Below the pieces are notes generated by a model, which was given only the letters and a program-made list of their open reading frames with translations, had not been told where the DNA came from and did not search any database. 64,000 nucleotides of DNA, from the NCBI GenBank assembly GCA_963710375.1, contig CAVPZX010000008.1:160001-224000 (forward strand), given 5' to 3'. Position numbers and translations under genes: made by a program. The stretch's first letter is position 1, and the number at the start of each line of letters is the position of its first letter. Below are positions 7,300 through 35,600 of this stretch, piece after piece. Source of the DNA: Nitrospirota bacterium. Lineage in GTDB: Bacteria; Nitrospirota; Thermodesulfovibrionia; Thermodesulfovibrionales; Dissulfurispiraceae.

Positions 7300-8052
7300 T
7301 CAGAACGGCCATATTTGGTCCAAAGCTTTCACCAGCCAGCCCTGCGATTGCTTATCAGCAAGCACACCGTCGCCAACAAGATATATCTTGGCATCGGCCA
7401 CCTGCGCAGAAGAGATGGTATTGGTCGGCGATATATCTTCCGGCCTGATGATACCCCTTATAACAATAATCTCTTTATCGTTATTTATTATTCTCTCCTT
7501 GCGAGACTCAAGCACCAGGTTCCCATTGGGGAGCACTTCGACCACCTTCGCCGAAATCGTATCGGTAAAAGTTGTTGTGCTTGCCGTATCTCCCTCACCT
7601 GCAAAACCAGAATTTGAGTTTGCCTGAATACCGGACTGGAAGTTCCCTAATCGTTTTGTGAGCTGAGAAATGCCCAGCACGTTAGGGATACTGTTATTAA
7701 GGCTCGAGGTGCTGGTATCGTTAGTCGTCGCCTTTTTGGATGCATTTGTTGTTTCAGTAATAAGAATGGTCACAATATCATTGAGCCTTCTTGCGCGCAA
7801 ATCCTCATAGAGCGATGCCCTGTCGGTCCATAGGGAACCTTCACCTGCATATGATTCCTTTTGTTTTGCCTCCACATATTTGGGAGGCATCGGAGCAGTC
7901 TTAATATCACGAGCTTCCTTTAATCCTGAACAGCCAAAAAAAGCAAAGAGCAAGGGGCATAGAGCAAAGAGTAGAAGCCTTAACCCAATACTCTTTGCGC
8001 CTTTTACACCCTTTGCGCTTTGCTCTATGCGTCTTTGTTCTTTGCTTCTCAT
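7300..8052 (-). CDS. flgH: Flagellar L-ring lipoprotein FlgH
   Basis: Lipobox FFGC; GSLW...DLRARRLNDIVTI; VVEVLPNGNL; RGIIRPEDI; ends WPF. Confidence 0.96.
   Translation of the reverse strand: MRSKEQRRIEQSAKGVKGAKSIGLRLLLFALCPLLFAFFGCSGLKEARDIKTAPMPPKYVEAKQKESYAGEGSLWTDRASLYEDLRARRLNDIVTILITETTNASKKATTNDTSTSSLNNSIPNVLGISQLTKRLGNFQSGIQANSNSGFAGEGDTASTTTFTDTISAKVVEVLPNGNLVLESRKERIINNDKEIIVIRGIIRPEDISPTNTISSAQVADAKIYLVGDGVLADKQSQGWLVKALDQIWPF
7943..8050. repeat. Inverted heptamer array (GCAAAGA/GCATAGA-type) inside the flgH signal-peptide region
   Basis: GCAAAGAGCAAGGGGCATAGAGCAAAGAG...CTTTGCGCTTTGCTCTATGC...CTTTGC. Confidence 0.8.
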
Positions 8053-8802
8053 ATCTTCACCTTCACTGTATCCGCAGAAACAAGTATTCCGCTAATATCC
8101 TTCTTTTGAGCAGTACACGCGACCTGAGCAACGCCGCCTATTACGGCATCATTACGGAGCACTCCTTTAGTAGAGATCAGCACATTTTCTCCTTCAACTA
8201 GCACGGTAACCTCTTTGCCTCTCTTAATACTCAATGTGTTGCTGAAATAATCAGCCTCTCATTATCACTCCCTGGGCAATATTTGACTTGAGGCTCTTTC
8301 CTTCGATCCCGGTCATATCTGTTACAGCCCCCATCGGCAGGCGTGAGCTCTTCTGCTTAACTGTGTAGACGTCATCTCTGGTAATTATTGAGCCGCTTAC
8401 GAGTGGTTTTGCCGTAACAAAAACGTCGGCAAGGACGTCATATGCCGCCTCCACTAAAACCGTACGGACTACTTTCTTGTCGTCACATAGGGCCGCGCGA
8501 AAGATGATTTTATTGCGTCCGTTATATCCATCCGCTGCAATACTGCCAACGGTATAGGTTGCTTTATCATCCAGAGCTTCAAAACCCCTTACAATTCTTA
8601 TTCCAGAGAGCTCAACGTTTTGAGAGACCGATCGGACAAGTTCGGAGAGGACAGCTTTCTTTATTGTGTCCATAAGATGCTCCCTGTCAAAAGCAACAGC
8701 AACACAAGGCGCAAAGAGCAAAGAGCATAGAGCAAAGAGTAACAACCCTAACCCTATGCCCTTTGCCCTTTGCTCTATGCAGGTGTGTTCTTTGCTCTTC
8801 AT
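8049..8802 (-). CDS. flgA: Flagellar basal-body P-ring formation chaperone FlgA (one +1 frameshift near 8255)
   Basis: ORFs 8251-8802 and 8049-8234 join into a SAF-domain FlgA (...GVIMRADYFSNTLSIKRGKEVTV...) if one base of AGGCTGA is removed; lies between flgG and flgH. Confidence 0.85.
8709..8800. repeat. Inverted heptamer array inside the flgA signal-peptide region
   Basis: GCGCAAAGAGCAAAGAGCATAGAGCAAAGAG...CTTTGCCCTTTGCTCTATGC...CTTTGCTC. Confidence 0.8.
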
Positions 8803-8804
8803 AA

Positions 8805-9593
8805 TTACGCCTTCATCGCTGCTGTGGTCTGCAGCATCTGATCTGATGCCTGGACAGCTTTTGAATTCATGTCAAAGGCCCTCTGGGCCGTAATAAGATT
8901 TGCAAGCTCTGTAACAATACTCACGTTAGAGTTCTCAAGAAATCCCTGGCTGATGGCGCCAAACCCCAGAGCATCGGGGGCGCCGGTAATTGGGTCGCCC
9001 GAAGCATCGGTGGCAAGAAACAGATTTTTGCCGATAGACTGCAGTCCGGCGGGGTTGATAAAACGCGCCAAGGTTATAGAGCCTACTAGAGATGGCGCTG
9101 TTGTTCCTGCTACCAGTATATTGACGTCGCCGTTAAAAGCAACTGTTATTGTAGTGGCGTCTGTTGGAATAGTTATTGGAGGTTCGAGAGGGTACCCATC
9201 AGGGTTCACGATGTTGCCGTTTTTATCGAGGCTGAAGGTCCCGGCCTTTGTGTATGCAGTAGTCCCGTCAGGCCGTGAAAGCTGGAAAAATCCGTCCCCC
9301 TCTATAACAAGATCAAGCGGATTTCCTGTATTGATGAAATCTCCCTGACTAAAAAGCTTTTGCACTGCCACCGGCTTTACGCCGAGCCCAACCTGTATTC
9401 CGGAGGGCACCTGCATGCCGGTTTCAGAAGGTGCACCGGGAGACCGCAACTGCTGATAGAACAAGTCCTCGAACTCTGCCCTGCCCGTTTTATACCCTAT
9501 TGTGTTGACATTCGCAATATTGTTGGATATGACATCGACCATCAACTGCTGGGCTTGCATCCCCGATGCCGCAGTAAAAAGCGCTCTGATCAT
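8805..9593 (-). CDS. flgG: Distal rod protein FlgG
   Basis: MIRALFTAASGMQAQQ...NNIANVNTIGYK...EFEDLFYQ; LENSNV...AQRAFDMNSK. Confidence 0.97.
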   Translation of the reverse strand: MIRALFTAASGMQAQQLMVDVISNNIANVNTIGYKTGRAEFEDLFYQQLRSPGAPSETGMQVPSGIQVGLGVKPVAVQKLFSQGDFINTGNPLDLVIEGDGFFQLSRPDGTTAYTKAGTFSLDKNGNIVNPDGYPLEPPITIPTDATTITVAFNGDVNILVAGTTAPSLVGSITLARFINPAGLQSIGKNLFLATDASGDPITGAPDALGFGAISQGFLENSNVSIVTELANLITAQRAFDMNSKAVQASDQMLQTTAAMKA

Positions 9594-9629
9594 AAACCCC
9601 CCTCTTCTTTAGAATTCAGCACACGGCGT

Positions 9630-10358
9630 TTAAACTTTTGCAATTTCAGTGACGGTCTTCTCCGCAAGGGTATCAAAATTAGTGATAACTTTCTGTGCCA
9701 CTTCAAACTCTCTTAATGCACTTATTATGCCAACCATTTCATTAATAGGGTTAACATTGGACATCTCTATAGCCCCTTCCACTATCTGGCCGCCTGACAC
9801 GCCGGACTCCGTACCTGAGAACAGGGAATTACCGAGGTGCTGCACAGACGAGGGATCGAGCTTTACCAGTTTAAGCTTGCCGCTGTTGTTTCCATCTGCA
9901 TAGATAGTGCCGTCACTTGTTACCTGTATTGCGCTGCCTTGAATACGTATCGGCTTGTTTGCTGTATCAAGAACCGGGTCCCCGGAACCGTCTACCAATA
10001 AACCGTCTTTACTGCGGATGAAACTGCCGTTTCTGGTGTAATAAATATTATTCCCGGCGCCCTGCACCGCAAAAAAACCGTCTCCCCTGCATGCAAGGTC
10101 AAGCGGGTTTCCTGTAAGCTGCACAGTGCCGTCAGTTGTGTCTATTGAAGGTTTCCCTAAGTACGCCATGGCTTTTGCATTGGGATAAGCGGCATTCTGC
10201 GTATCCGGTACTCCTTCAAGAAGGGGATACAGACGGGAGGAAAATGATGTCCGTTTATAACCTGCGGTGTTGGAATTTGCCATGTTTTGGGTCACATTAT
10301 CCAATTCCTGGCTTCTCAGCATAGCTCCGGTCATTGCAACATAAATGCCTTTATACAT
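9630..10358 (-). CDS. flgF: Proximal rod protein FlgF
   Basis: MYKGIYVAMTGA...NMANSNTAGYK; TGNPLDLA; YTRNGSF; IEMSNVNPI; immediately upstream of flgG. Confidence 0.92.
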   Translation of the reverse strand: MYKGIYVAMTGAMLRSQELDNVTQNMANSNTAGYKRTSFSSRLYPLLEGVPDTQNAAYPNAKAMAYLGKPSIDTTDGTVQLTGNPLDLACRGDGFFAVQGAGNNIYYTRNGSFIRSKDGLLVDGSGDPVLDTANKPIRIQGSAIQVTSDGTIYADGNNSGKLKLVKLDPSSVQHLGNSLFSGTESGVSGGQIVEGAIEMSNVNPINEMVGIISALREFEVAQKVITNFDTLAEKTVTEIAKV

Positions 10359-10396
10359 TATCAGGCTCCTCTATGCATCATTAATAAACAAAGTAT

Positions 10397-10412
10397 TGCA
10401 ATATCGGTGCCA
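10397..10412 (-). promoter_or_regulatory. Sigma54 promoter of the flgF operon
   Basis: Minus strand TGGCAC-CGATA-TTGCA, a consensus -24/-12 element. Confidence 0.88.
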
Positions 10413-10429
10413 CTGAGAGATAATTAGAG

Positions 10430-10456
10430 TAAAGGGATCATGATTTTAACCGATAA
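10430..10456 (+). promoter_or_regulatory. Sigma28 promoter of the small plus-strand ORF
   Basis: TAAA-N15-ACCGATAA, 10 nt upstream of ATG 10467. Confidence 0.72.
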
Positions 10457-10466
10457 ATAAGGCAAG

Positions 10467-10661
10467 ATGGCTGATGATGAGGGCATAATAGACGTCTACA
10501 GGGTTCGGGAAGTGACAGGTATCGGTCCGCCCCGTGTCTTTCCCATGAGCCGCGTTGCTAAGAGGAAAAAGAGGCCCGTTCAGGAGGAAGCGGAGCCTTT
10601 GGAAGAAACAATAGAGGAAGAGTCTCCCAAATCAGGCGAAGGAATCGATATCGAGGTATAA
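10467..10661 (+). CDS. Small hypothetical protein (64 aa), probably sigma28-dependent
   Basis: Only credible plus-strand ORF in the window; fills an intergenic gap; basic KRKKR patch, acidic tail, ends GEGIDIEV. Confidence 0.65.
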   Translation: MADDEGIIDVYRVREVTGIGPPRVFPMSRVAKRKKRPVQEEAEPLEETIEEESPKSGEGIDIEV

Positions 10662-10687
10662 TTTTCCTATCGCAGGTAAAATTTTCC
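10655..10687. promoter_or_regulatory. Paired candidate activator-binding sites (GG-N9-CC) upstream of the flgF sigma54 promoter
   Basis: GGTATAATTTTCC (10655-10667) and GGTAAAATTTTCC (10675-10687); similar pair upstream of fliK. Confidence 0.45.
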
Positions 10688-10709
10688 CGCTTTTAGGGCT
10701 CACGAACCT

Positions 10710-11552
10710 TTATTCGAGCAAATGCTCTTTTTGAGCGTCGAAATCCCGCTTCAGGTTTTCCTGTATTGAGTTAAACCGTCTCGTTGTCAACCCTAATTGT
10801 TCAAAGCCGATTTTGGAAAATTCTACCGGACCCTGCATCCCTATTCCCATATGAAGACACATTGCATCAGCTACCTGAACTATCTGGCACATCGTCTCGT
10901 AGCCGCTGTCTTCAAAAGGCGGATACTGCTCAGCATGATGATATTCGATTACCGCCTCAAGGTTCCTGGGGAGTTTCCACTTCCTCGCGATAAGCCCCCC
11001 GACATTGCAGTGATTGAATCCCAGTATCGCATCCTCGGCCACAATGGAAGGGATCTTTTCCGCATATACCTTGTCGGTGACCAATTTGTACTGATCAGGC
11101 AGACTATTGTTAATGACGATCTTCCCAACGTCATGTATTAAACCCCCGATAAGCACATCGTCCGGCATCAGCATTTTAGTGTCTGCCGCCAGGAGCGATG
11201 CTGCTATCGACACACCCAGACTATGCTCCCAATGCTGCTGCTCGAAGGGTCCTGATTTCCTGTGAAGATCTTTCAGGGAAGCAGACATTACCAGGGACTT
11301 CACTGAATTAAAACCTATAATAATTATAGCTGTAGAAATCGCATCAACACACTTGCCTCTGCCGTAATATGGCGAATTGGCTATTTTCAAAATACGGGTC
11401 GAAAAGGACTGGTCCTGGGCTATAATGTTTTCAAGCTCATTGATAGATGAATAATCACTACTGACCAATTTCAGGACTTTTGACGCCACGGGAGGAATAC
11501 TCGGGACATCAACAGTCTGCATAATAATTTTTTCCAGGGTATCTTCTCTCAT
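10710..11552 (-). CDS. HDOD domain signalling protein
   Basis: VPSIPPVA...ILKIANSPYYG...HSLGV...GLIHDVGK...ARKWKLP...IEYHH. Confidence 0.9.
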   Translation of the reverse strand: MREDTLEKIIMQTVDVPSIPPVASKVLKLVSSDYSSINELENIIAQDQSFSTRILKIANSPYYGRGKCVDAISTAIIIIGFNSVKSLVMSASLKDLHRKSGPFEQQHWEHSLGVSIAASLLAADTKMLMPDDVLIGGLIHDVGKIVINNSLPDQYKLVTDKVYAEKIPSIVAEDAILGFNHCNVGGLIARKWKLPRNLEAVIEYHHAEQYPPFEDSGYETMCQIVQVADAMCLHMGIGMQGPVEFSKIGFEQLGLTTRRFNSIQENLKRDFDAQKEHLLE

Positions 11553-11622
11553 CGCTGTTCAAACTCCTCTCATATTATGATAACAGAAAAGAGCATTACT
11601 CTTCTGCTCTTGCCTCTTGCCT

Positions 11623-12684
11623 TTAGACAGAGTTAATGATTTCTCCGGCCATATCTTCCAGCGATAGCACTTTATCTGCAATTCCCGCATCGACTACAGC
11701 CTTCGGCATGCCATATACTACACAGGTTTCCTCATCCTGCGCAAATATCCTCCCACCTGTTTTTTTCAGGCTGATCAACCCCTTTAGACCATCATTACCC
11801 ATGCCGGTCAGTATTACTCCCAGCGCCCTGCCCGGGAAACATTCCGCTACAGAACCCATCAGTGCATCTACCGAGGGTCTGTATATAAAATCCTCTTTAT
11901 TGTCGGAAATGCTGACAGCAGTCTCTATCCCCCTCACCCTCTTTACACGCATATGGCCCCAGCCCGGTGCTATAAGGGCAACTCCAGGCTTCAAAGTCTC
12001 CCCCTCCTTTGCCTCCCTGACCTCTATCTGGCTCAACTGATTAAGCCTTTCAGCAAAAGGACCGGTAAAGTTAGGCGGCATATGCTGGGCGATAACAATC
12101 GGAGAAGGAAATTCCTTCGGAAGCCTCGGGATGATCTCCTGTAAAGCCTTCGGACCGCCGGTAGAGGTGCCTATAGCGAGAATCCCAATCCTCCGCTCGC
12201 CGGTGGTCCTGAGCGGCATATGGGTTGGGACCTCAATTGGTTTCGGTGCTGCTGCCCTGCCGGCCGGCCTGACCTGCCTTTTGACAAGACCTTTCCTTGC
12301 TATCTGCTTTATTTTATCGATCAATATCTCCTTGATCTTCACAATATTGATCGAAAGTTCGGACAGGTTTTTAGGTATGAAGTCAACTGCGCCCAGGTCA
12401 AGGGCATCCAGCGTTACCTTTGCACCTTCTGTTGTAATAGAACTTACCATAATTACCGGCAAGGGATTTGTCACCATGATATGTCTCAACGCGGAAATCC
12501 CGTCCATTCGCGGCATTTCAACATCCATGGTGACAATATCAGGCTTGAGACTCCCGATTTTCTCGATCGCCTCAAGTCCGTCTCTGGCAGTGCCGACGAT
12601 TTTGATCTCTGGATCAGAGGAAAGCATAGCGGACAATGCATTCCTCATAAAGGCAGAATCATCAACAATAAGCAGCTTTACCAT
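11623..12684 (-). CDS. cheB: Chemotaxis methylesterase CheB (REC + catalytic domain)
   Basis: REC domain; catalytic motifs GTSTGGP, AQHM and TGMGNDG. Confidence 0.97.
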   Translation of the reverse strand: MVKLLIVDDSAFMRNALSAMLSSDPEIKIVGTARDGLEAIEKIGSLKPDIVTMDVEMPRMDGISALRHIMVTNPLPVIMVSSITTEGAKVTLDALDLGAVDFIPKNLSELSINIVKIKEILIDKIKQIARKGLVKRQVRPAGRAAAPKPIEVPTHMPLRTTGERRIGILAIGTSTGGPKALQEIIPRLPKEFPSPIVIAQHMPPNFTGPFAERLNQLSQIEVREAKEGETLKPGVALIAPGWGHMRVKRVRGIETAVSISDNKEDFIYRPSVDALMGSVAECFPGRALGVILTGMGNDGLKGLISLKKTGGRIFAQDEETCVVYGMPKAVVDAGIADKVLSLEDMAGEIINSV

Positions 12685-12690
12685 GGCGCC

Positions 12691-13884
12691 TCAGAATCCA
12701 AGATCCTTAAGTAGTTCGTTGACATCCTCCTGTGAAACCTTCTCCGGAGCATTAATTTTATCTGATAACCGGAGCTCAGGCTTGACACCAAACGTCGTTA
12801 TAAGTTTTACCAACTCGTCTTCGATATCTCCGACAAGTTTTATCACTTTCTTGATGCTCTGCCCTGTAAGATCCTGGAACGACTGCGTAGTGAGAATTTC
12901 TGTGAGATCATCCTCTAATCCTGCCTTGAATGTCTTCAGATACTTAACCGATTCTTCCGGCTCCTTCAGATTTCGTATATGTGAACCAAGTCCGTCCATA
13001 ATTAATATATATTTCTCGACTATTCCCATCGTCTTGTTCGCGGCAGCTTCCGTCCTCTCAATAACGGCGTTCAACTGGTCAACGGCATTAGGCATCTCGG
13101 TGACTGCCATATCCCTGAGTTTCGGATCAAGTGCTTCTTTAAAGCTTCGTATAGAATCATGGAGTTTTCGCGTTACCTTTCCGACCTCCCGGTAGAGGTC
13201 ATTCTGCCCTTTCTTCAATATGCCCTGGATTGCACTGTCGGCTTTCTCATAGTCCTGGACCGCAATTGCATTCATGAAGCCGACCATTTCATCGAAGAGG
13301 GCGTAACGAGGGTCCGCAGTGTCGATTCCCTGCCGCGTAAGGAAATTAATTGCGTTGCTCACGTCATTGACAAGTCCTTCTTGTCCTGTACCCTCGACCT
13401 GCTTTATCACCTGTAGCTGATCGATCTCATTCTTCACTTCTTCATTCTTCACTTCAAACATCTCATCATCAAACATGCTCATGTCTTCAAGAGGTATCAA
13501 CTTCTTTGTATCCAGCAGGACGATTAACTTTTCGCCTACCTTTGCAACGCCGGATACAATATCTGAAGTGTTAAAGTCACTAGGGGGCTCTATCGCTGAA
13601 TCCTCTATCGTAACAACACCCGTTATGGCATCGATAAGCACTCCGAAGATTATACGGCCGCTCGTTACAACAATTACCTTCTCTCCTAAAGAATCCCCTC
13701 CGAGGCCAACCATTTTTTTCAGGTTTACGATGGGAATGATCCTTCCCCTGAGGTTGGTAACGCCCTCTATATAATGAGGGACTTGCGGCAGCCTTGTCAG
13801 GTGCGGAAGATTAACAATCTCCTGGACTTTGAGAATCGGTATAGTGTATTCATTACCGTTCATGGTAAAACCTATATACTGCAT
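12691..13884 (-). CDS. CheW-CheZ fusion protein
   Basis: N-terminal CheW (IEGVTNLRGRIIPIVNL); C-terminal CheZ (RTEAAANKTM, EILTTQSFQDLTGQSIKKV, VSQEDVNELLKDLGF). Confidence 0.88.
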   Translation of the reverse strand: MQYIGFTMNGNEYTIPILKVQEIVNLPHLTRLPQVPHYIEGVTNLRGRIIPIVNLKKMVGLGGDSLGEKVIVVTSGRIIFGVLIDAITGVVTIEDSAIEPPSDFNTSDIVSGVAKVGEKLIVLLDTKKLIPLEDMSMFDDEMFEVKNEEVKNEIDQLQVIKQVEGTGQEGLVNDVSNAINFLTRQGIDTADPRYALFDEMVGFMNAIAVQDYEKADSAIQGILKKGQNDLYREVGKVTRKLHDSIRSFKEALDPKLRDMAVTEMPNAVDQLNAVIERTEAAANKTMGIVEKYILIMDGLGSHIRNLKEPEESVKYLKTFKAGLEDDLTEILTTQSFQDLTGQSIKKVIKLVGDIEDELVKLITTFGVKPELRLSDKINAPEKVSQEDVNELLKDLGF

Positions 13885-13900
13885 ATTTCCTCCTAGACAT

Positions 13901-13987
13901 CAGGTTAAGGTTGAGGTTAAGGTTGAGATAGACAGCTAAAATTTTTAGAAGCCTTTATTTCTAAACCTTAACCTAACCCTTAACCTG
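13901..13987. repeat. Inverted hexamer array (AGGTTA/AGGTTG)n...(AACCTT)n
   Basis: CAGGTTAAGGTTGAGGTTAAGGTTGAG...CTAAACCTTAACCTAACCCTTAACCTG. Confidence 0.85.
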
Positions 13988-13998
13988 TTTTTATAATG

Positions 13999-15765: not shown

Positions 15766-15767
15766 GA

Positions 15768-16557: not shown

Positions 16558-16577
16558 GTTCGAACACCCCCGAAAAT

Positions 16578-16703: not shown

Positions 16704-16706
16704 TTT

Positions 16707-24604: not shown

Positions 24605-24610
24605 ATTATT

Positions 24611-24709
24611 CAGGCTATAGGCAATAGGCTATAGGCAATAGGAAAAAACCTCAGGAAGTCTCTTTCTTCTGTCTTTCCCCATAGCCTATTGCCCATCGCC
24701 TATCGCCTT
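24611..24709. repeat. Inverted heptamer array (GGCAATA/GGCTATA-type), overlaps the flhB stop codon
   Basis: CAGGCTATAGGCAATAGGCTATAGGCAATAGG...CCATAGCCTATTGCCCATCGCCTATCGCC. Confidence 0.85.
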
Positions 24710-25761: not shown

Positions 25762-25764
25762 CCC

Positions 25765-26502: not shown

Positions 26503-26503
26503 T

Positions 26504-26773
26504 TCACCTCACATAAAGCGTTATATTGCCAAAAATACTCCTTGTAAACCCCACCAGCACCTTTACCATCCATGGGAGCGCAATAAGCAGGGTGAGAAAG
26601 ACCGCGATAATCTTCGGAACAAAAGTCAATGTCATCTCCTGCAGCTGCGTAACCGCCTGAAAAAGGCTTATCATCAATCCGACGACAAGGCTCACCAACA
26701 ATATGGGCCCGCCTACCAACAAAATAGTTGTAAATGTCTGCCTCGATATCTGGTTTAACAGCTCAATGGTCAT
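26504..26773 (-). CDS. fliQ: Flagellar export protein FliQ
   Basis: FQAVTQLQEMTLTFVPK; start at MTIELL (ATGA overlap with fliP). Confidence 0.96.
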   Translation of the reverse strand: MTIELLNQISRQTFTTILLVGGPILLVSLVVGLMISLFQAVTQLQEMTLTFVPKIIAVFLTLLIALPWMVKVLVGFTRSIFGNITLYVR

Positions 26774-27576
26774 CTGAACCCTCCGATGAGAGAACCTATC
26801 AGCAGTTGCCACCCATCGACCAGGACAAAAAGCAGCAACTTGAAGGGCAGCGAAACCATAATAGGAGGGAGCATCATCATGCCCATGGAGAGCAGTATGC
26901 TCGCAACAACCATATCAATAACCAGAAATGGGAGAAAAATAAGGAACCCTATTTCAAATGCCCTCTTAAGCTCACCGATAGCAAAGGCTGGGACGACCAC
27001 ACGCAAAGGCAAATCCATAGGTTTCGCAGGGTTCTCCAATTTTGACATCCTGAGGAAAAAAGCGAGCTCTTTCTCTTTTGTCTGTCTAAGCATAAATTCC
27101 TTCAGAGGAACAGAAGCCTTGTTAAGCGCTTCTTCAGCCCCGATCTCTTTCCTGGAATAAGGCTGATACGCATCCGCGTAAATCCTGTCCAGGACCGGTG
27201 ACATGACAAAAAATGTGATAAAAAGAGCGAGCCCTATGAGCACTTGTGTCGGCGGTACTGAAGGAGTTCCAAGAGCCTGCCGGAGAAAAGAGAGCACTAC
27301 AATAATCCGCGTAAATGAGGTGACCATGACAAGAATTGCCGGCAATATGGACAACAATGTAAGAAACAGGAGCAATTCAAACGGCGTCAACATGCCAAAA
27401 AAACCGCCGCTAGCAGCAGGAGGCGCAGGGGCGGCAGAAACACCGGAAGGCAAAAGGCCAAGGACTAAAAAGGCGCAAAGCGCATAGGGCAAAGGGCATA
27501 GAGTAAAAGCCTTAACTCCTTGCGCTTTGCGCTTTGCGCTTTGCTCTATGCTCTTTGCGCCTTTGCCTTTAGCCAT
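26770..27576 (-). CDS. fliP: Flagellar export protein FliP
   Basis: TSFTRIIVVLSFLRQALG; MGMMMLPP; LPFKLLLFVLVDGW. Confidence 0.97.
   Translation of the reverse strand: MAKGKGAKSIEQSAKRKAQGVKAFTLCPLPYALCAFLVLGLLPSGVSAAPAPPAASGGFFGMLTPFELLLFLTLLSILPAILVMVTSFTRIIVVLSFLRQALGTPSVPPTQVLIGLALFITFFVMSPVLDRIYADAYQPYSRKEIGAEEALNKASVPLKEFMLRQTKEKELAFFLRMSKLENPAKPMDLPLRVVVPAFAIGELKRAFEIGFLIFLPFLVIDMVVASILLSMGMMMLPPIMVSLPFKLLLFVLVDGWQLLIGSLIGGFR
27472..27572. repeat. Inverted heptamer array inside the fliP signal-peptide region
   Basis: GGCGCAAAGCGCATAGGGCAAAGGGCATAGAG...TTGCGCTTTGCGCTTTGCGCTTTGCTCTATGC. Confidence 0.8.
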
Positions 27577-27907: not shown

Positions 27908-27953
27908 ACATTGAAGACAGGTAAAGGTAGAGGGATACCTTCTCCTATACCCG

Positions 27954-28283
27954 TCATCTTAACTGTCTCACCCGCTCGGTAGGGCTCACGATGTCCGTTA
28001 ATCTGATGCCAAATTTTTCATTGACCACAACCACCTCGCCCCTGCCAATGAGCTTTTGATTGACATACACCTCCATAGGCTCGCCCGCCAGCTTATCAAG
28101 AGCAATGACCGAGCCCTGGCCGAGTTGCAATAGCTCCTGAATGAGGATTTTTGTGCTCCCGATAACTACCATCAGTTCGAGCGGGACATCAAGGATAAAA
28201 TTTATATCACGCTGAACAGCCTGGGGAGGTTGGACCTCCCCTTTAAACTCTGGGACTTCCGGATTCTTAATATCTTCCGCCAT
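27954..28283 (-). CDS. fliN: C-ring protein FliN
   Basis: ILDVPLEL...LDKLAGEP...GEVVVVNEKFGIR. Confidence 0.97.
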   Translation of the reverse strand: MAEDIKNPEVPEFKGEVQPPQAVQRDINFILDVPLELMVVIGSTKILIQELLQLGQGSVIALDKLAGEPMEVYVNQKLIGRGEVVVVNEKFGIRLTDIVSPTERVRQLR

Positions 28284-28297
28284 TATATTATCTCCCT

Positions 28298-29278
28298 TCA
28301 GATTTTACTGACGTCCTGGACCGCCCTGGTTATTTTTACAGCCCTGTATCCCTTGAACAGGCCAAATTTGGCTTTAAACTTCACAAAGCCCTCAACTGTC
28401 ACTCCAAGGTCATCTTCTACATTGGTATCAAGGACAAGCACGTCATCTTCTTTCAGTGCCAGAACCTCACTTACATTGAGCACAGCACTCCCAAGAACGC
28501 CGGTCATCGTGACAGACGTCTCTTTCAGCCGCTCCTTCAACCGCTCAAGCCATTTAACATCCAGTTCATCCCTGTCTGCGGAAAATGCGCTGTACAACTT
28601 CTCCTTTATCGGCTCTACCGACCCGTAAGGGATACAGAGAAAAGCCTTGCACAGCCTGCCTTCGATCTCAAGGACAAATTCTACTTTAATGACAACATCA
28701 ACCGGGGTAACAATAGTCACAAACTGGGGGTTCATTTCAGAACGTACGTAAACAGGTTTTATTGGATGAACCGGCTTCCATGCATCTTCCATGTCGTCAA
28801 AAAACATTATGACCACTTTATGGATGATTTTCTGTTCAATAGGAGTAAACTCCCTTCCCTCGGGTTTATAGTAGCCTTTCCCCGTACCTCCAAAAAAGTA
28901 TTCGATAAGACTGAATATCATTGAGGCATCAAACACCAGAAGCCCGAAGCCTCTGAGCGGCTCCATTTTAAAAATATTAATGCTCGAAGGAAATGGAACG
29001 CCTCTCATAAAATCATAAAATTTGGTAATTGTGACATTGACGTTAGTGACATCCACCATATGCCTGATCGCAGCAGACAAAGAAAGGCGGAAATTCCGGG
29101 CTAGCCGCTCATTTGCAATATCAAGAGAAGGCATCCTCCCCCTGACGATCTTCTCCTGGCCGGTAAAATCATATGCCTTTACACCGGAAGTGTCCTCAAG
29201 CTTCTCTGTCTCTACCTCTCCTTCAGAGATTCCCTTTAGTAGGGCATCAACTTCATCCTGTGAAAGAATATCTTCCAT
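28298..29278 (-). CDS. fliM: C-ring protein FliM
   Basis: ILSQDEVDALL CheY-binding motif; GREFTPIE; SEMNPQF. Confidence 0.97.
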   Translation of the reverse strand: MEDILSQDEVDALLKGISEGEVETEKLEDTSGVKAYDFTGQEKIVRGRMPSLDIANERLARNFRLSLSAAIRHMVDVTNVNVTITKFYDFMRGVPFPSSINIFKMEPLRGFGLLVFDASMIFSLIEYFFGGTGKGYYKPEGREFTPIEQKIIHKVVIMFFDDMEDAWKPVHPIKPVYVRSEMNPQFVTIVTPVDVVIKVEFVLEIEGRLCKAFLCIPYGSVEPIKEKLYSAFSADRDELDVKWLERLKERLKETSVTMTGVLGSAVLNVSEVLALKEDDVLVLDTNVEDDLGVTVEGFVKFKAKFGLFKGYRAVKITRAVQDVSKI

Positions 29279-29344
29279 CAAACCTCCAAAAAACAGTCCA
29301 AGGTAGAGACAGAGGTAATCAAAACTCTACCTTTACCTGTAGCA

Positions 29345-29842
29345 CTATTGCATTACAAATTCAGTAAGATAAACATTTTTCACCGTATTGTTCCCCAGAA
29401 TCTGGTTTCCCATCATATTTATTTCGTCTTTTAGCTGCAGTTTTCCTTCAGGAGACATGAGCGAATCAGAAGTCTTGCTCGTCAGGAGATTGATAACAGC
29501 ATCCCTGATCTGCGGTGTTTTTCCTTTGGCGCTTTCCAGAATAGCGGGACTTGATAGCTCTAATTGCATTGATACCTTAAGAAACTTTGTGGCGCCCTGG
29601 TCGCCCAGATTAACGACAAAAGGGTCAAGGACAAACATGACACTCTCTTCCTTCTTCGCATCTTCCTTTTCCTTCTTTTGCCCTTTGTCGCCGCCCGATT
29701 TTGAAAGAAAGAAAAATGCGCCGCCCCCGCCGACAAGGACTGCAACGACAACTATAATGATGACAATAAGCCCTTTACCCAATTTCTTTTTCGGTTTTTT
29801 AACTTCTTCATCTAGTAATTTTTCATCCCTGTCCTCATCCAT
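29345..29842 (-). CDS. fliL: Flagellar protein FliL
   Basis: Single TM helix; LDPFVVNL...IRDAVI...NVYLTEFVMQ. Confidence 0.95.
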   Translation of the reverse strand: MDEDRDEKLLDEEVKKPKKKLGKGLIVIIIVVVAVLVGGGGAFFFLSKSGGDKGQKKEKEDAKKEESVMFVLDPFVVNLGDQGATKFLKVSMQLELSSPAILESAKGKTPQIRDAVINLLTSKTSDSLMSPEGKLQLKDEINMMGNQILGNNTVKNVYLTEFVMQ

Positions 29843-29886
29843 AAATAAACCCCCTTAAATTAACGTCAAGCGTCGCGCTTTTATAG

Positions 29887-29902
29887 AGCACAGAGCATGC
29901 CA
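29887..29902 (-). promoter_or_regulatory. Sigma54 promoter of the fliL operon
   Basis: Minus strand TGGCAT-GCTCT-GTGCT. Confidence 0.7.
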
Positions 29903-29943
29903 ATATGTAGCTTATTGAATTTAAAGATATATTAAAGAGTGGG

Positions 29944-29957
29944 GTCAACAAAATGAC
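29944..29957. promoter_or_regulatory. GTCA-N6-TGAC palindrome, candidate FleQ-like binding site
   Basis: GTCAACAAAATGAC; the same motif recurs at 46033 and 47116. Confidence 0.5.
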
Positions 29958-30006
29958 GGTTGGATGGCTATTTAAACCTTCCAACCGTCAAAATATAGAT
30001 AAAATA

Positions 30007-30110
30007 AGGCAATAGGCGATAGGCACGGGGCAATAGGCTATAGATTAATTCTATGACTTGTCTTCTTGTCTTTATTTTTCCTATTGCCTATAGCCCAGTG
30101 CCTATCGCCT
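30007..30110. repeat. Inverted heptamer array (GGCAATA-type) after the flgE stop
   Basis: AGGCAATAGGCGATAGGCACGGGGCAATAGGCTATAG...CCTATTGCCTATAGCCCAGTGCCTATCGCCT. Confidence 0.85.
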
Positions 30111-30120
30111 TTCTTTATTA

Positions 30121-31872
30121 CTACTGTTTTGCGTTCTGTAATGCAGTGAACAGTTCCTGAGCAGTTGAGATAACTTTTGCATCGGCCTGATATGCGCTCT
30201 GAACAGTAATCATATTGACAAATTCGCCTGACAAGTCAACATTACTTTCCTCAAGGGAATCGGAGAAAATACTTCCAAATCCGGCGTTCCCTGCAAGACC
30301 GGGAATCGGTTGCCCTGAAGCAGAGGATTGAGTATACAGGTTGTTTCCATCATTTGTTAGCGCAGTCGGCGCATTAAACCGTGCCAGTTGAATTTGAGCA
30401 ATATTCTTGGTTTGTCCATTAGTAAATGTACCTGTTATGACACCGGTCTGAGAAACGCTGAAACTCGATAGACTGCCGGCTGCGTATCCGTTCTGGTACT
30501 GGTTCGTGACCGAGCTCGGTGAACCATATTGTGTTGTGCCGGTGGTTCCACTGCCGCCCTGGGCAATCGTCTCATTCTCTAACTGGCCGAAATCAAAGGT
30601 AATCTGCTGATTCTGCTGTACGCCGCCGGAGAAATTGAAGCTGTTATATTGGTCAGGCGTAACGCTTTCAAGGTCACCTGCGGTATCGAAATTGAGAACC
30701 CCTGCGGTCGTTATTTGAGATATCGTGGGTTGAGTACTGCCGCTGACGCTGTCGATCGCAGGGACCACGGACCAATACATCCAACTGTTTCCCTGTGCCG
30801 ACGAGGATATTTTCGAGAAATAGACATTAGTCAGATGGGTGTTGCCGTCCGAGTCGTATACAGTCATAGATGTCGAAAAAGCGCCTGCAGGGTTGTTTGG
30901 GTCAAACCCGGCGACCTGAAAATCACTTGACGCTTTATTGCCTGCTGCAATGCTCGTGACGCCTGAAGCTGGAACCTGACCACCAGTGTTAATATTCGAA
31001 AAGCCCAACATGTTCGATGCTGTCGTGTTTGCACTACTCCAATCAAAATTCTCCTGTATGAGATTGGCATTGATATTATTGATCGTAAACTCGTACTGAG
31101 TGGCGCTGGCGCTGGCAGTATAACTAACATTTACTGCTGTAGCCCCGAACGTGGCAATAACAGAAGAATTGGTATTGATCGCAGTCTGTACTGCAGCGGC
31201 AAGCGAAGATGCGCTATATGAACCCGCCGCGATAGTTATTGTAGTAGCTGCCAGTGCGGTTCCGCTTATCACAATTTGATCATTTGTAGGGCCTATAGTA
31301 AAGGGTGTGCCGCCTATCGGATCGTTCAGGGGCGACGATTCGTACAGATTCGCAAAGATTGTCGCCTGTGACGTCGCAGTTGGAGCGCCTACGCCGATCT
31401 GTGATATGTTTATGGAGCCGCTGGCGCCGAACGTGCCGGGTGTTACGCCTGTTTTTGTCGTAATCGGCTGAGTCAGCGCTGCGTTGCCCTGCAGAAAATC
31501 ACCGTTGGGATTCACAAGGTTCCCGTTTTGGTCAACACTGAACTGGCCGGCTCTTGTGTAATATTCGGAGCCGCTGGTGTCCTTGACAATGAAAAATCCG
31601 GCCCCTTGAATAGCCATGTCGAGGGGATTCGAAGTCGTTTGCAGCGTCCCCTGTGAAAAATCTGTTTGTACCGATTGAAGTGAAACGCCATTCCCGGTCT
31701 CGGTCGAAGATGTGGCTCCCAGAGATGTACTCAGGAGATTGGCAAATGTTGTAGAGCCTCCTTTGAAGCCTACCGTATTGCTGTTGGATATATTGTTGCC
31801 GATAACAGACAACTCCTGCGACATTGCATCCAGACCGCTTACCCCGGTATAGAGTGCAGATTCAATTCCCAT
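30121..31872 (-). CDS. flgE: Flagellar hook protein FlgE
   Basis: SALYTGVSGL...GNNISNSNTVGFK; YTRAGQF; VYDSDGNTH; LEESNVDLSGEF; start placed at MGIES. Confidence 0.95.
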   Translation of the reverse strand: MGIESALYTGVSGLDAMSQELSVIGNNISNSNTVGFKGGSTTFANLLSTSLGATSSTETGNGVSLQSVQTDFSQGTLQTTSNPLDMAIQGAGFFIVKDTSGSEYYTRAGQFSVDQNGNLVNPNGDFLQGNAALTQPITTKTGVTPGTFGASGSINISQIGVGAPTATSQATIFANLYESSPLNDPIGGTPFTIGPTNDQIVISGTALAATTITIAAGSYSASSLAAAVQTAINTNSSVIATFGATAVNVSYTASASATQYEFTINNINANLIQENFDWSSANTTASNMLGFSNINTGGQVPASGVTSIAAGNKASSDFQVAGFDPNNPAGAFSTSMTVYDSDGNTHLTNVYFSKISSSAQGNSWMYWSVVPAIDSVSGSTQPTISQITTAGVLNFDTAGDLESVTPDQYNSFNFSGGVQQNQQITFDFGQLENETIAQGGSGTTGTTQYGSPSSVTNQYQNGYAAGSLSSFSVSQTGVITGTFTNGQTKNIAQIQLARFNAPTALTNDGNNLYTQSSASGQPIPGLAGNAGFGSIFSDSLEESNVDLSGEFVNMITVQSAYQADAKVISTAQELFTALQNAKQ

Positions 31873-31969
31873 AATAAACCCCCTTTTTCTTTGCAATCAA
31901 TTTTTTAAGCGTTTATACTTTGTCCCATTTAAGGGAAATCTAATCCAAAAAACGCGTTCACTATAACCC

Positions 31970-32767
31970 TTAGGAGTTTTCGCCGAGCAGAGTGAACATA
32001 TCTGTGAACATTTCGTTTGTTGCCGACAGAACCGTAGAATTCGATTGAAAAGCATTCTGTACAGAAATCAAATTCCCAAACTCATCCGACTGATTTACGT
32101 TGCTTTGCTCAAGGGTACCACTGGCAACAGTGCCGGCGCCACCCGAGGACGGCAACAACAGTTTAGGCGCTCCCGACCCGTCAGTCTGGGAATACTCATT
32201 GTTACCCGCATTAGCAAGCTGGGTCGGCGCATTGAAAACAGCCAGTTGAAGTTGGGCAACTGTTTTCACCTGTCCGCTCGCGTAGGTGGCGTTGAGCTGA
32301 CCGTTCGGTGTCAGCTGGACAGAAATCGGCATAGCGCCGGTTGCATCGGGAGGTATAATTATATTACCTCCAGATCCTTGAACTATCTGTCCGCTGGCGT
32401 TTATAAGGGTTCCGGTCTTGTCAAGAGAGAACTCCCCATCTCTTGTATAGAAGGTATCATTGTTTCGGCTTGGGTCTTTAACTATGAAAAAACCGTTGCC
32501 GTTAATAGCAAAGTCGAGGGGGTTGTTGGTATTTTGCAAAGGGCCTTCAGTGAATTGCGTCTGGATAGCCTGGACATTTACTCCGCTCGGATTCTGCTGG
32601 AGTGAAGGCACGCCGACAGCCGAACTTAACACATTCGAGAACAGTGTCCGTCCGCTCTTGAACCCGGTGGTGCCAAGATTGGCCAGATTGTTGCCGATGA
32701 CGTCAATGGCTGAAGTGTATGCATTGAGCCCGCTGGCGCTTATAACAGTATCAGATAATCCGCTCAT
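31970..32767 (-). CDS. Short hook/rod-family (FlgE/F/G) protein, 265 aa
   Basis: GNNLANLGTTGFK, PLDFAINGNGFF, YTRDGEF and LEQSNV motifs; lies between flgD and flgE. Confidence 0.88.
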   Translation of the reverse strand: MSGLSDTVISASGLNAYTSAIDVIGNNLANLGTTGFKSGRTLFSNVLSSAVGVPSLQQNPSGVNVQAIQTQFTEGPLQNTNNPLDFAINGNGFFIVKDPSRNNDTFYTRDGEFSLDKTGTLINASGQIVQGSGGNIIIPPDATGAMPISVQLTPNGQLNATYASGQVKTVAQLQLAVFNAPTQLANAGNNEYSQTDGSGAPKLLLPSSGGAGTVASGTLEQSNVNQSDEFGNLISVQNAFQSNSTVLSATNEMFTDMFTLLGENS

Positions 32768-32793
32768 TCCAAATCCTCCTTGCCTATTGTTAA

Positions 32794-33267
32794 TTAGCTG
32801 CTCGTCCCCTGGCTGTTGGATAGGGTGACATTAGTAATATTGGAGTAATCAATGGTCGATGTGGTACCGCTCGAAGTGGTAATATCAAGCTGGAGCCCGG
32901 TTGAACTATTGGGGCCTCCGTTGCTAACACCCGTAACCACGCCTGTATTGCCGGTGTTGTCCGTTACCTTGTACCCGATCATGCTGTTCGCAGCAAACTG
33001 TTGTAAATTCTGGTTTACCTGGGTTTCCTGCTGCAGACTGCTGAATTGGGCGAGCTCAGCAACAAAAGCACTGCTGTCCTGGGGATTACTCGGGTTCTGG
33101 TTTTTTAACTGTGCTATCAGCAGGGTCATAAAATCGTTTTCTCCCAATGCTGCCGACGATGAAGATGAACTCGAAGTAGTAGACGAACTCGACGCAGACG
33201 ATGAATTGGTTGTGTTTGAGGTAGCTGCCTGGTTAAGGTAATTTGTTATGTCTGTCGATGATACCAT
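32794..33267 (-). CDS. flgD: Hook capping protein FlgD
   Basis: LGENDFMTLLIAQLKNQNPSNP...LAQFSSL. Confidence 0.94.
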   Translation of the reverse strand: MVSSTDITNYLNQAATSNTTNSSSASSSSTTSSSSSSSAALGENDFMTLLIAQLKNQNPSNPQDSSAFVAELAQFSSLQQETQVNQNLQQFAANSMIGYKVTDNTGNTGVVTGVSNGGPNSSTGLQLDITTSSGTTSTIDYSNITNVTLSNSQGTSS

Positions 33268-33281
33268 AATATCCTCCTTAT

Positions 33282-34796
33282 TTATGCAAAAAAATCGAAG
33301 AAACTTTGTTTTTGTTCTTTTTGCTGTCTTTGCTGTTGCTGATTTGCATCCTGTTGTCTGCCGCCGCCTGTAGATCTGTCGTCTTTCAAATCTGCAAAAA
33401 AATTCCCTGTCTTTACACCGGCGCTTTCTATCGAATTTTTTATCTGGGGCATTGCAACAGAGAAAAGGTCTTTTACCGCAGAGGAGTCAACCTTGAAGTC
33501 GGCAGTTAAAACGCCGTTTTCCACTTTGAGCCTTATTTCGATTGTGCCCATTTCAGGGGGAGAAAGCTTTATAACCAGACTTTTCCCTCCCGATGCAAGC
33601 GTTTTCACAATAGGATCACTCAACTCATTTAATTTATTTACAGGCAAGGTCTCCTGCGCCGGTTGGGAGTCATTGGCAAGCGGAGTCTGCTGCAGTGCTG
33701 CGGGAGAAAAAGCAGCGTTGCTGTCAGCATCTCCGGACGTAGATTTGTTTTGGTTATTCAAGGATAGACTTATTTCCTTGATACCCAAATTGCCGGTCGT
33801 GCCATCCATCAGCGAATTGAAAGTACCTCGCCCAGAGTTCACCATCGTATCGTTTGCTGTAGTCAGCGTTGCAGAGTTCGAATTGTTCAGCGTTGCAGAG
33901 TTCGAATTGTTCAGCGTTGCAATGTTCGCATTGTTCAACGTCGAAGTGTTCGCATTGTTCAACGTCGCAGTGTTTTCAAAGTTCAGCGTTGTAGTGTTTG
34001 CAGTGGTCAGTGAGGCAGTGTTCAGCGCTCTATCGTTGGCAGGGTTCAGCGTTGAAGCGTTTGGAGTATTCAGCACTAAACGTTCAGTATTACCGGTTAA
34101 ACTTTTCTGTGCCGCCACGCTAAACGCTGCAACTTCAAGATTTGCACCGCTCGTTCCGGCATTGTCAAGAGCGTCAATAGGCGCGTTTTGATCTGTAACA
34201 ACTGTATCCTGTGTTAACAGCACGGAATCCATGTCCAATTGTTTGCCCGCTGTCTGCCCTGTGGCCAGCGGCACTTCAGGAGTGTCACTAACAATCTGTC
34301 TTTTTATATCGCCCTTTTGAATTGCATTCCCCAAAGCCGCGATGAGGGCGCCAGCGCCATCATTGCCGCTATCCATCCCAGTTGCAGTAATAGAGGTGGT
34401 ATCAGAGGAAGAAGCATTGCCGGACTGATAAGGAGCAATAAATGTAACAGGCTGAGCAAACGATGTCTGTAGCTGCGCCATCATTTGCTGAAGCACATCG
34501 GTCACGCTGTCCCCGGAAGCTGATTTTTTGTCGGACCCAATGCCTTTACCTTTAGACATTCTTTGTATTAGCTCCATCAGGTTCTCCGACGCAGCTGTTT
34601 TGCCATCGGCGCGGATAATAGATCCGCCCTGAAGATTTCCAAGACTTTTATCATCACCCGAAACTATTGCTTGCAAAAGATCGGTAAAATTTGTTGCCGG
34701 TGAGCCATCCTCGCCAATCCCTTCAGGTACACTGGAAGACGTTATGCCCAAAGAGAGAGTTTTAGCACTTGCCTGCACCATTAAGCTGTCCAACAT
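33282..34796 (-). CDS. fliK: Hook-length control protein FliK
   Basis: Low-complexity N-terminus; C-terminal IKLSPPEMGTIEI (Flg_hook) and Q-rich tail; start placed at MLDSL after GGAGG. Confidence 0.9.
   Translation of the reverse strand: MLDSLMVQASAKTLSLGITSSSVPEGIGEDGSPATNFTDLLQAIVSGDDKSLGNLQGGSIIRADGKTAASENLMELIQRMSKGKGIGSDKKSASGDSVTDVLQQMMAQLQTSFAQPVTFIAPYQSGNASSSDTTSITATGMDSGNDGAGALIAALGNAIQKGDIKRQIVSDTPEVPLATGQTAGKQLDMDSVLLTQDTVVTDQNAPIDALDNAGTSGANLEVAAFSVAAQKSLTGNTERLVLNTPNASTLNPANDRALNTASLTTANTTTLNFENTATLNNANTSTLNNANIATLNNSNSATLNNSNSATLTTANDTMVNSGRGTFNSLMDGTTGNLGIKEISLSLNNQNKSTSGDADSNAAFSPAALQQTPLANDSQPAQETLPVNKLNELSDPIVKTLASGGKSLVIKLSPPEMGTIEIRLKVENGVLTADFKVDSSAVKDLFSVAMPQIKNSIESAGVKTGNFFADLKDDRSTGGGRQQDANQQQQRQQKEQKQSFFDFFA
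33850..34080 (-). repeat. 24-bp (8-aa) degenerate tandem repeat within fliK
   Basis: CAGCGTTGCAGAGTTCGAATTGTT occurs twice exactly, plus degenerate copies (NNANTSTL/NNANIATL/NNSNSATL...). Confidence 0.85.
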
Positions 34797-34830
34797 CCCA
34801 CCTCCTGATGACTTTGATGAGAAGAGGAGA

Positions 34831-34846
34831 AGCAATATGCATGCCA
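34831..34846 (-). promoter_or_regulatory. Sigma54 promoter of fliK-flgD-flgE
   Basis: Minus strand TGGCAT-GCATA-TTGCT. Confidence 0.85.
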
Positions 34847-34878
34847 AACAAAAATCGTCGGGCGTGTGGCATCACGAG

Positions 34879-34960
34879 GAATGTTAAATGTTGAATTTTG
34901 AATAATAAATTATGGACTTTTTCATTAATTCAACATTCAGCATTCAAAATTCAAATTTTT
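34879..34960. repeat. Inverted heptamer array (TTGAAT(T/G)-type)
   Basis: GAATGTTAAATGTTGAATTTTGAAT...ATTCAACATTCAGCATTCAAAATTC. Confidence 0.75.
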
Positions 34961-35048
34961 AAGAATAACGCTGACTCTGTGGTTAATTGCATTATTTGGT
35001 TACAGGAAAAAACTTCCAGGTAGGAAAAAAAAACCCGGCAATTGTATG

Positions 35049-35600
35049 CTACTTATTGCCTTTGGTGATAATTCTTTTGGAAATAGATGCTGCCTTATCG
35101 CTGTCCATCTGGGCAAGGATTCCGCCGGCAACTCTTGGCTTCAACATGCTGATTATAGCCACGGCAGTGTTCTCGTCAAGCTTTTCGAGTCTTTTTGCAG
35201 CTTCTTCAGGAGGCATTGCCTCGTAAATCTTACTTACTTTCAACAGACGCTCTTTAGTGTTTTGGTCTATAGTCTTTTGTGCCTCTTCAATCTCTTTTTT
35301 CAGCTGTTCGTTGTGTTCAACTTCCTTTTGAATATCCGATTTAATGATTGATAGACGCCCCTCTTCGATGGACTCCTGTTGCTTCGGCTGCTGCTGTGTT
35401 TGCTCCTGCGCAAAAGAGAGGTTATAGGCAATAGGCAATAGGCAATAAGACGGGCAATAGGCAATGGGCAATAGGCTATAGATTAAAGAAAACAAAAAAA
35501 TAAAAAATATTCTATGACATGTCTTATTGTCTTTACTTTTCCCGTTGCCTGTCTTATTATTTTTTCCCATAGCCCCTCGCCTATCGCCTGTCTTATTCAT
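35049..35600 (-). CDS. MotE/FlbB-like (MgtE_N-related) flagellar protein with a repeat-derived signal peptide
   Basis: Coiled coil, then KIYEAMPPEEAAKRLEKL...MLKPRVAGGILAQMDSDKAA; follows fliJ; start placed at MNKTG. Confidence 0.85.
   Translation of the reverse strand: MNKTGDRRGAMGKNNKTGNGKSKDNKTCHRIFFIFLFSLIYSLLPIAYCPSYCLLPIAYNLSFAQEQTQQQPKQQESIEEGRLSIIKSDIQKEVEHNEQLKKEIEEAQKTIDQNTKERLLKVSKIYEAMPPEEAAKRLEKLDENTAVAIISMLKPRVAGGILAQMDSDKAASISKRIITKGNK
35424..35592. repeat. Inverted heptamer array (GGCAATA-type) forming the motE 5' end
   Basis: (AGGCAAT)n arm; loop TAGATTAA...TTCTATGACATGTCTTATTGTCTTTA, shared with the 30007-30110 element. Confidence 0.85.

Follow-up and report, generated by a model that had tools for sequence, protein, structure and literature searches.

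Flagellar genes of a Nitrospirota bacterium (Dissulfurispiraceae) begin inside short palindromes built of tandem heptamers, and the pyrimidine-rich arm of these palindromes coincides with the hydrophobic core (h-region) of a predicted signal peptide. We analysed a window of 64,000 nucleotides (nt) from this organism (assembly GCA_963710375.1, contig CAVPZX010000008.1, positions 160,001 to 224,000) together with its source genome (G000) and related genomes, and the translations and orthologs indicate that the repeats very probably lie in, and are, the signal peptides. The heptamer elements likely derive, to judge from their genomic contexts, from a cassette that carries a four-helix-bundle gene of the type found in intervening sequences (IVSs) of 23S rRNA genes. 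In our view the palindromes probably stem from such a mobile cassette, which inserts between genes and is then stripped of its own gene; the pyrimidine arm of the palindromes is predicted to replace the ancestral h-region of the next exported protein. We regard the takeover of signal peptides by these palindromes as genuine, recurrent and genome-wide; it is a new form of repeat exaptation, and a mobile element of a new class may be involved. Signal peptides change quickly in evolution, and where they come from can rarely be traced; in this case the source DNA can be seen, and orthologous sites line up a plain, presumably ancestral leader, a filled cassette, a truncated cassette and an empty hairpin.

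Heptamer palindromes at the starts of flagellar genes

Coordinates are those of the window unless contig C5 of the same genome is named, and the five genes first considered, part of a flagellar cluster, all lie on the minus strand (Table 1). An earlier reading of the letters alone (the sequence-only reading) had described one inverted heptamer element at the starts of flgH, flgA and fliP. All three genes do start within palindromes of the GCAWAGN family, the loop letters are common to the three, and the peptides that had been quoted for them are correct. The element of flgI, previously taken for a remnant, is a complete palindrome of the GCAGTAN family. For motE, a second family that also occurs between genes had been proposed; this family is GGCNATR, its pyrimidine arms give the h-region and two untranslated copies lie at other junctions of the cluster, but the A-rich loop encodes the basic n-region, and the purine arm gives the probable ATG. 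Pfam matches confirmed FlgH, FlgA, FliP and FlgI, while the motE product gave an MgtE_N match (E 3.7e-7), and the gene is therefore called motE-like here. Close FlgI relatives bear the label Nitrospirota, in one case Dissulfurispiraceae.

Table 1. Heptamer elements and associated genes in the window
Feature	Position	Strand	Description	Match or score
GCAGTAN palindrome, complete	7162..7297	-	flgH-flgI junction; purine arm 7263-7297 untranslated; loop with ribosome-binding site (RBS) and ATG (7250); pyrimidine arm 7162-7196 = predicted FlgI h-region	
flgI	6147..7250	-	flagellar P-ring protein; predicted Sec signal repeat-encoded	PF02119
GCAWAGN palindrome	7943..8046	-	flgH start; detected arms 7943-7970 and 8010-8030; purine arm = predicted basic n-region, pyrimidine arm = predicted h-region preceding lipobox Cys	
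flgH	7300..8052	-	flagellar L-ring lipoprotein	PF02107
GCAWAGN palindrome	8711..8780	-	within flgA leader; arms 8711-8738 and 8753-8780	
flgA	8049..8802	-	start 8802; stop at 8251 after one-base assembly insertion near 8255	PF13144
GCAWAGN palindrome inside GGCNAAR arms	27449..27574	-	fliP leader; inner arms (GCAWAGN) 27475-27502 and 27517-27558; outer, weaker arms (GGCNAAR) 27449-27469 and 27561-27574	
fliP	26770..27576	-		PF00813
GGCNATR element	35420..35588	-	motE-like gene; purine arm 35561-35588, probable ATG 35570; two pyrimidine arm blocks 35420-35480 = predicted h-region	
motE-like open reading frame (ORF)	35049..35645	-		MgtE_N match
GGCNATR sister element	24613..24707	.	untranslated; flhB-flhA junction, overlaps flhB stop	folding z -9.1
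GGCNATR sister element	30008..30109	.	untranslated; between flgE-like gene and fliL	
TGAATKY sister element	34878..34953	.	untranslated; between motE-like gene and fliK-like gene	
Sister element with GAATTAN and GTGAAWN-like arms	49999..50080	.	gene junction	

Codon usage, which the sequence-only reading had named as a possible refuting explanation, was rejected as the cause of the repeats: among 200 back-translations with the codon usage of the genome, none reached the real period-7 score for flgH, flgA, fliP or the motE-like gene, and one did so for flgI. The corresponding control of self-complementarity was not significant for flgI (156/200) because its purine arm lies 5' of the ATG, outside the coding part. 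Predicted RNA folding in windows holding both arms gave z values of -3.6 (flgH), -6.6 (flgA), -4.8 (fliP) and -2.8 (flgI), and a motE window without the purine arm gave -1.4. The elements of flgI, flgH and flgA are spanned without any substitution by three contigs of run X4, which comes from a study different from the likely source, and an assembly artefact was thus rejected for these three.

The one-base insertion that shifts the flgA frame is absent from contigs of three runs, indicative of an assembly error; fliF is split as well (40217-40552 and 38991-40133) and may reflect an error of the same kind. In addition, our codon-model gene caller missed the leaders of flgH, flgA and the motE-like gene. 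A caller that skips repeat leaders would hide export signals, which is a warning for annotation.

Heptamer elements across the genome

Period-7 arrays are the commonest class of long-period repeat in the 3.19-Mb source genome, for which genes were called with our own codon-model script. Family profiles detected 392 arms, which were grouped into 207 elements (146 with both arms) and nine families of heptamer unit. On contig C5, 105 arms scored at least 18, compared with none in a Markov simulation of that contig. Simple pairs have a median length of about 97 nt, and 116 of 120 carry the same family in both arms with the purine arm first. The 146 complete elements lie at tandem junctions (101), divergent junctions (23), convergent junctions (13) or wholly within genes (9), and 83 of the 101 at tandem junctions start between -25 and +30 nt from the upstream stop codon; most elements are untranslated.

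Loop sequences are shared between unrelated loci (20 pairs with a score of at least 40, none in shuffles), from which we conclude that whole elements have been copied. In particular, the leaders of flgI and of a C5 gene for carbonic anhydrase can be aligned along 134 nt that comprise the arm, RBS, ATG and h-region; here a complete start-plus-signal unit has been copied between unrelated genes.

Proteins whose signal peptides coincide with an arm

A complete element stands at the beginning of 121 genes, 21 of which were labelled by eye as exported. The pyrimidine arm falls within the predicted signal of 10 of these 21, namely TolB, an ABC binding lipoprotein, LolA, carbonic anhydrase, an unnamed lipoprotein, FlgI, FlgH, FlgA, FliP and the MotE-like protein; Pfam backs eight of the ten by name, one has the MgtE_N match and one is without a match. 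The sequence-only reading had spoken of exported flagellar proteins, which holds for five genes, but the habit is not specific to the flagellum. Inspection of translations and orthologs by eye suggests the usual architecture of a basic n-region, an uncharged h-region and an AxA motif or lipobox at the start of the mature domain. A signal is required by FlgH, FlgI, FlgA, LolA and TolB, and in FliP a cleavable signal can occur. In 4 of the 100 other heads, the arm could be translated in an open frame from an ATG or GTG upstream, compared with signal use in 10 of the 21 exported heads (Fisher p 2e-6), so in-frame use at the N terminus is not equally frequent in other proteins, where it reaches at most these 4 in 100. 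A secretin gene (g934) with an arm near a possible start has an ambiguous leader and was left out of the count.

We regard it as very improbable that the repeats are untranslated, with the true starts downstream and the signal-like peptides a by-product of pyrimidine-rich DNA. In its favour, chance leaves about 27 of the 100 non-exported heads open across the arm. In flgH and flgA, however, the next in-frame ATG falls inside the mature domain and would yield no signal, which agrees with the upstream starts assumed earlier. Further points against downstream starts are the lipobox Cys of FlgH and the AxA-type cleavage motifs directly after the arm, the reading frame kept across orthologs despite different arms and lengths, and the established need of five of these proteins for a signal.

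The families differ in what they can encode. A 7-base unit read in codons would cycle through all three frames, so that C/T-rich arms would give uncharged runs of Leu, Phe, Cys, Pro and Ala, while A-rich arms or loops would give Lys and Arg and often an ATG; it follows that hydrophobic, mostly stop-free families may pass selection as h-regions. The mean hydropathy of the pyrimidine arms is 1.1-1.7 for GGCNATR, GGCNAAR, GCAWAGN and GCAGTAN, 0.36 for GTGAAWN and -0.2 for TGAATKY, and GAATTAN arms contain stops in 97% of frames. Signal use was observed in 9 of 11 chances for the hydrophobic families, compared with 1 of 10 for the others (p 0.002). The purine arms of GCAWAGN and GGCNAAR encode 34-38% Lys/Arg, and for these two families the proposal of a basic first arm and a hydrophobic second arm stands; it does not extend to GCAGTAN and GGCNATR, whose purine arms contain stops in 87% and 66% of frames, respectively, nor to flgI, where that arm precedes the ATG.

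The genome-wide scan for arrays that the sequence-only reading had proposed thus yielded many elements, but the expected enrichment before exported genes was not found overall: a crude signal caller, which misses long Cys-rich leaders, was positive for 11 of the 121 heads and for 267 of 2827 genes. Similarly, 11 of 44 elements of the hydrophobic families including GGCNATR precede exported genes, compared with 10 of 77 others (p 0.13). Targeting of exported genes is therefore unsupported overall, and filtering followed by entrapment is favoured over it.

In-frame copies were also observed within proteins that we read from Pfam matches as NadD, KdsB, HypF, RimO and ManC; a number of membrane glycosyltransferase-like genes contain them as well. 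A region of C5 (211100-218091) holds several membrane glycosyltransferase/TPR-like genes full of in-frame GGACTGA arrays, which form long loops at equivalent positions. At C5 194808-195681 (L049:208-1081), lone GCAAAGG purine arms encode the short, basic prepilin leaders of two adjacent pseudopilin-like genes, one with an N_methyl match, and so make up a second type of cleaved leader formed from repeats.

Turnover of repeat leaders between related species

We compared 41 genomes, 27 of which contain FlgH, and examined the region in 24 of the 26 relatives with a match. A leader was scored as containing an array at a period-7 score of at least 6, as the maximum among 297 mature-coding windows was 5. 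Arrays were found in 57 of 99 flagellar leaders overall (58 before a fliP positive of G032, which sits in the tail of the upstream gene, was dropped) and in 37 of 41 within the genus, with all five leaders positive in G004. LolA leaders have arrays in 9 of 10 members of the genus. No array was detected in the flagellar leaders examined of G010, G017, G018, G020, G023, G026, G031, G032 and G033.

The class of unit differs even between sister species, and at least 14 class changes across five genes were counted on a FlgI plus FlgH tree, with GGCNAAR and GCAWAGN merged and the labels assigned by hand. Identity to the three nearest relatives is 0.43-0.76 for leader DNA and 0.79-0.92 for mature DNA, and the reading frame is kept across orthologs despite arms of different kinds and lengths. 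The comparison with insert-free orthologs that had been suggested earlier revealed plain signals at the same place. The carbonic anhydrase leader, for example, is plain and about 22 residues long in G002, G007 and G014, contains a GCAGTAN module in G000 and G003 and a GGCNATR module in G001 and G005, and its cleavage region is kept across plain and repeat leaders; from this comparison, the plain leader is likely the ancestral state. In two orthologs, flgH of G008 and the carbonic anhydrase gene of G003, most of one arm is lacking.

The mobile repeat had been suggested to be either tolerated in, or domesticated as, a Sec signal. The signal position and the tolerance, with entrapment, are in line with our results, but adaptive domestication is not shown, and the turnover seen among sister species speaks for the other two instead. 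True domestication would mean a selected regulatory device, with signal coding as a maintained function, in which a hairpin pairs the upstream arm with the codons of the h-region and couples translation, ribonuclease III (RNase III) processing or mRNA stability to export. Stable predicted hairpins do span the start region, an RNase III gene is present, and an IVS of Coxiella is cut at its first heptamer by RNase III, according to passages of one report (PMC4990558). In a post hoc comparison, GGCNAAR, GCAWAGN and GCAGTAN precede exported genes in 9 of 22 cases, compared with 12 of 99 for the other families. We nevertheless consider such a device quite unlikely, as the same slot holds different families, lengths and starts in species that are 80-90% identical, these genes have plain leaders in relatives that lack the repeats, and most of one arm has been lost in the two orthologs named above.

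Three leaders, flgH of G001 (L013), flgA of G007 (L011) and the motE-like gene of G007 (L012), carry in frame a different palindrome that encodes VIPA-type peptides, on top of the heptamer element. We take this extra palindrome to be REP-like.

A four-helix-bundle gene cassette as the source

The lead to a source came from two small four-helix-bundle-like genes in a repeat-rich polysaccharide region. Six genes of G000 exceed the TIGR02436 cut-off, and all six lie in repeats (by eye, four in heptamers, one in hexamers and one in octamer-like units) among protein-coding genes, none of them within a 23S rRNA gene; the protein of a filled cassette matches PF05635 with E 3.5e-36. The window's own elements contain no four-helix-bundle gene; the probable start context of the motE-like gene resembles the start of the cassette on C5. 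In a sample of the 40 strongest full-length matches among 75 in the relatives, 17 genes have matched inverted heptamer arms, compared with 0 of 150 random G000 genes. A further 15 of the 40 are flanked on either side by arrays of period 6 or 8, scored without regard to inversion, which extends the cassette design beyond period 7; hexamers or octamers flank the genes at L130, L134, L135, L138-L140, L142, L143, L145, L152, L155, L156 and L160-L162.

Orthologous junctions connect the cassette with the leaders. Between flgH and flgI of G015, the flgH stop is followed by a purine arm, a four-helix-bundle gene, an overlapping ATG and a pyrimidine arm that is the predicted h-region of FlgI, and G006 provides a second filled example (L147). 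G014 retains, in the space between fliL and fliM, a four-helix-bundle gene cut down to its first 37 codons and bounded by short arms (L016:12036-12146). One site of C5 has the whole cassette in G000, the same arms with just the gene's start between them in G007, an empty hairpin of another family in G004 and 49 nt in G002. Joints that skip the C5 cassette, which might have pointed to loss within the population, have sides of less than 30 letters or unlisted support; they are probably other copies of the element and were not counted.

On these grounds we propose that the cassette, consisting of a purine arm, the four-helix-bundle gene and a pyrimidine arm, would insert behind a stop codon, after which the gene would be deleted. 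Where the next gene encodes an exported protein and the arm is hydrophobic and free of in-frame stops, the new element would replace the DNA from the upstream stop up to just before the cleavage site, and the gene would then depend on the element, so that only a swap for another usable element would be possible. The weakest step is the movement itself, which may involve the four-helix-bundle protein and recombination between similar arms; that swaps proceed by such recombination is a guess, with which the nested fliP element is compatible. More tentatively, and with somewhat less than even confidence, we suggest that the four-helix-bundle gene and its tandem 6-8-mer arms form a type of mobile element not described before, in which a protein with an Avd-like fold recognises or spreads the family of its own arms, and whose gene-less derivatives are portable RBS-start-signal modules that repeatedly overwrite the leaders of essential exported proteins and can be copied from one gene to another, unrelated one.

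The arrays could instead arise in place, with slippage expanding chance heptamers in leaders and spacers that are free of constraint, template switching across the hairpin copying one arm onto the other and four-helix-bundle genes being merely flanked by similar sequence. This would explain why arms are matched within an element, why families are only 2-4 of 7 bases apart, why the fliP element is nested and why most loops are without a close partner (at score 28, a partner exists for 49 of 100). We consider it unlikely, since non-repeat loops are common to unrelated loci, one RBS-ATG-leader module occurs in two unrelated genes, filled, truncated and empty states are found at orthologous sites, and having arms on both sides is far commoner for four-helix-bundle genes than for random ones.

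Several points weigh against an origin from a mobile cassette with capture of signal peptides. The closeness of the families leaves room for local conversion as the cause of some swaps. The purine arm of G015 holds an assembly gap; G004, whose assembly is 81% complete, has arrays but no TIGR02436 match; and G010, G020, G023, G031 and G032 have a four-helix-bundle gene and no array in the flagellar leaders examined. G017, G018, G026 and G033 have neither. The genomes are kin rather than independent, and no p value is therefore given for the link between gene and arrays. The lack of overall enrichment before exported genes counts here as well, as do the exported labels, which were assigned by eye and are partly circular, a weakness mitigated by the ortholog comparison, and the translation starts and export, which are predictions. 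Retro-mobility by a resident reverse transcriptase was rejected, as no PF00078 match was found in G000. REP/RAYT units are GTAG- or CGTC-tagged short palindromes that flank a Y1 (RAYT) transposase. The single Y1 transposase match of G000 (PF01797) was not linked to the arms, and none of the stronger period-7 loci listed adjoins it, its flanks not having been examined further.

Comparison with known repeat systems

The 23S rRNA IVS of Coxiella encodes a protein of the same family and has a terminal stem; GACAGAT heptamers, repeated in tandem, precede the start codon in numbers that vary among strains (PMC4990558, in part). ORF-bearing rRNA IVSs and the present elements share the S23p/23S_rRNA_IVP protein family (PF05635, TIGR02436) within a terminal stem, which here applies to filled cassettes only, and complementary termini, here represented by the matched inverted arms of 17 of the 40 sampled genes and by the folding of gene-less hairpins. 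The elements described here differ in lying between protein genes, in their hundreds of gene-less copies and in their many arm families, which are apparently read as signal peptides; they are not IVSs themselves, because the cassettes lie outside 23S rRNA genes. The function of the protein family is given as unknown in the same report, and mobility of a heptamer-armed cassette would provide this widespread family with a testable role.

MITEs (miniature inverted-repeat transposable elements) of the RPE, ERIC and YPAL type are likewise short, palindromic, multi-copy, mostly intergenic and without a transposase of their own. Palindromic repeats of 100-150 bp occur in frame as RPE in Rickettsia and as YPAL/RU-2 in YPO1552 of Yersinia, and one predicted signal peptide is partly repeat-formed (PMC2229807, in part). 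In the portions of the literature consulted, however, RPE and YPAL have one consensus and represent insertions or single new genes, whereas the heptamer elements comprise at least nine families with variable arm length and loops shared in subsets only, and across species have repeatedly taken the place of leaders in conserved exported proteins. The occupied sites have the appearance of replacement and not of clean insertion.

Dispersed tandem heptamers near gene ends, with a minority of copies in ORFs, have been reported as the TAACTGA arrays of Beggiatoaceae (PMC4679880) and the GGGAATC arrays of Xanthomonas and Nostoc (PMC4692102), and inverted pairs are mentioned for Xanthomonas. In the text available, each system has one motif, for which regulatory or G-quadruplex readings were offered. 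The terms "signal peptide" and "four helix" are absent from the main text of PMC4679880, and the passages of PMC4692102 name neither, the protein not having been searched for there. The cassette offers a possible origin for these intergenic arrays, which the earlier papers left unexplained. PARCEL repeats are also palindromic DNA repeats that encode parts of membrane-targeted proteins, but these are, in the excerpts consulted, 25-residue domains in mature surface proteins rather than 7-nt arrays in targeting signals (PMC2996958). Neither the cassette in general nor turnover of repeat-encoded signals was found described in the literature covered, which largely leaves out subscription papers and excludes supplements. 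If the tentative reading as an undescribed mobile element is true, such elements would provide bacteria with a standing source of new export signals.

Other features of the window

A separate palindromic repeat lies downstream of flgI (6072-6144), and its part at 6102-6144 is matched by many unrelated contigs. In addition, positions 51947-56603 encode three paralogous membrane proteins in tandem, whose hydrophobic segments are internally repeated, and a tRNA-Gly gene follows at 56616-56690.

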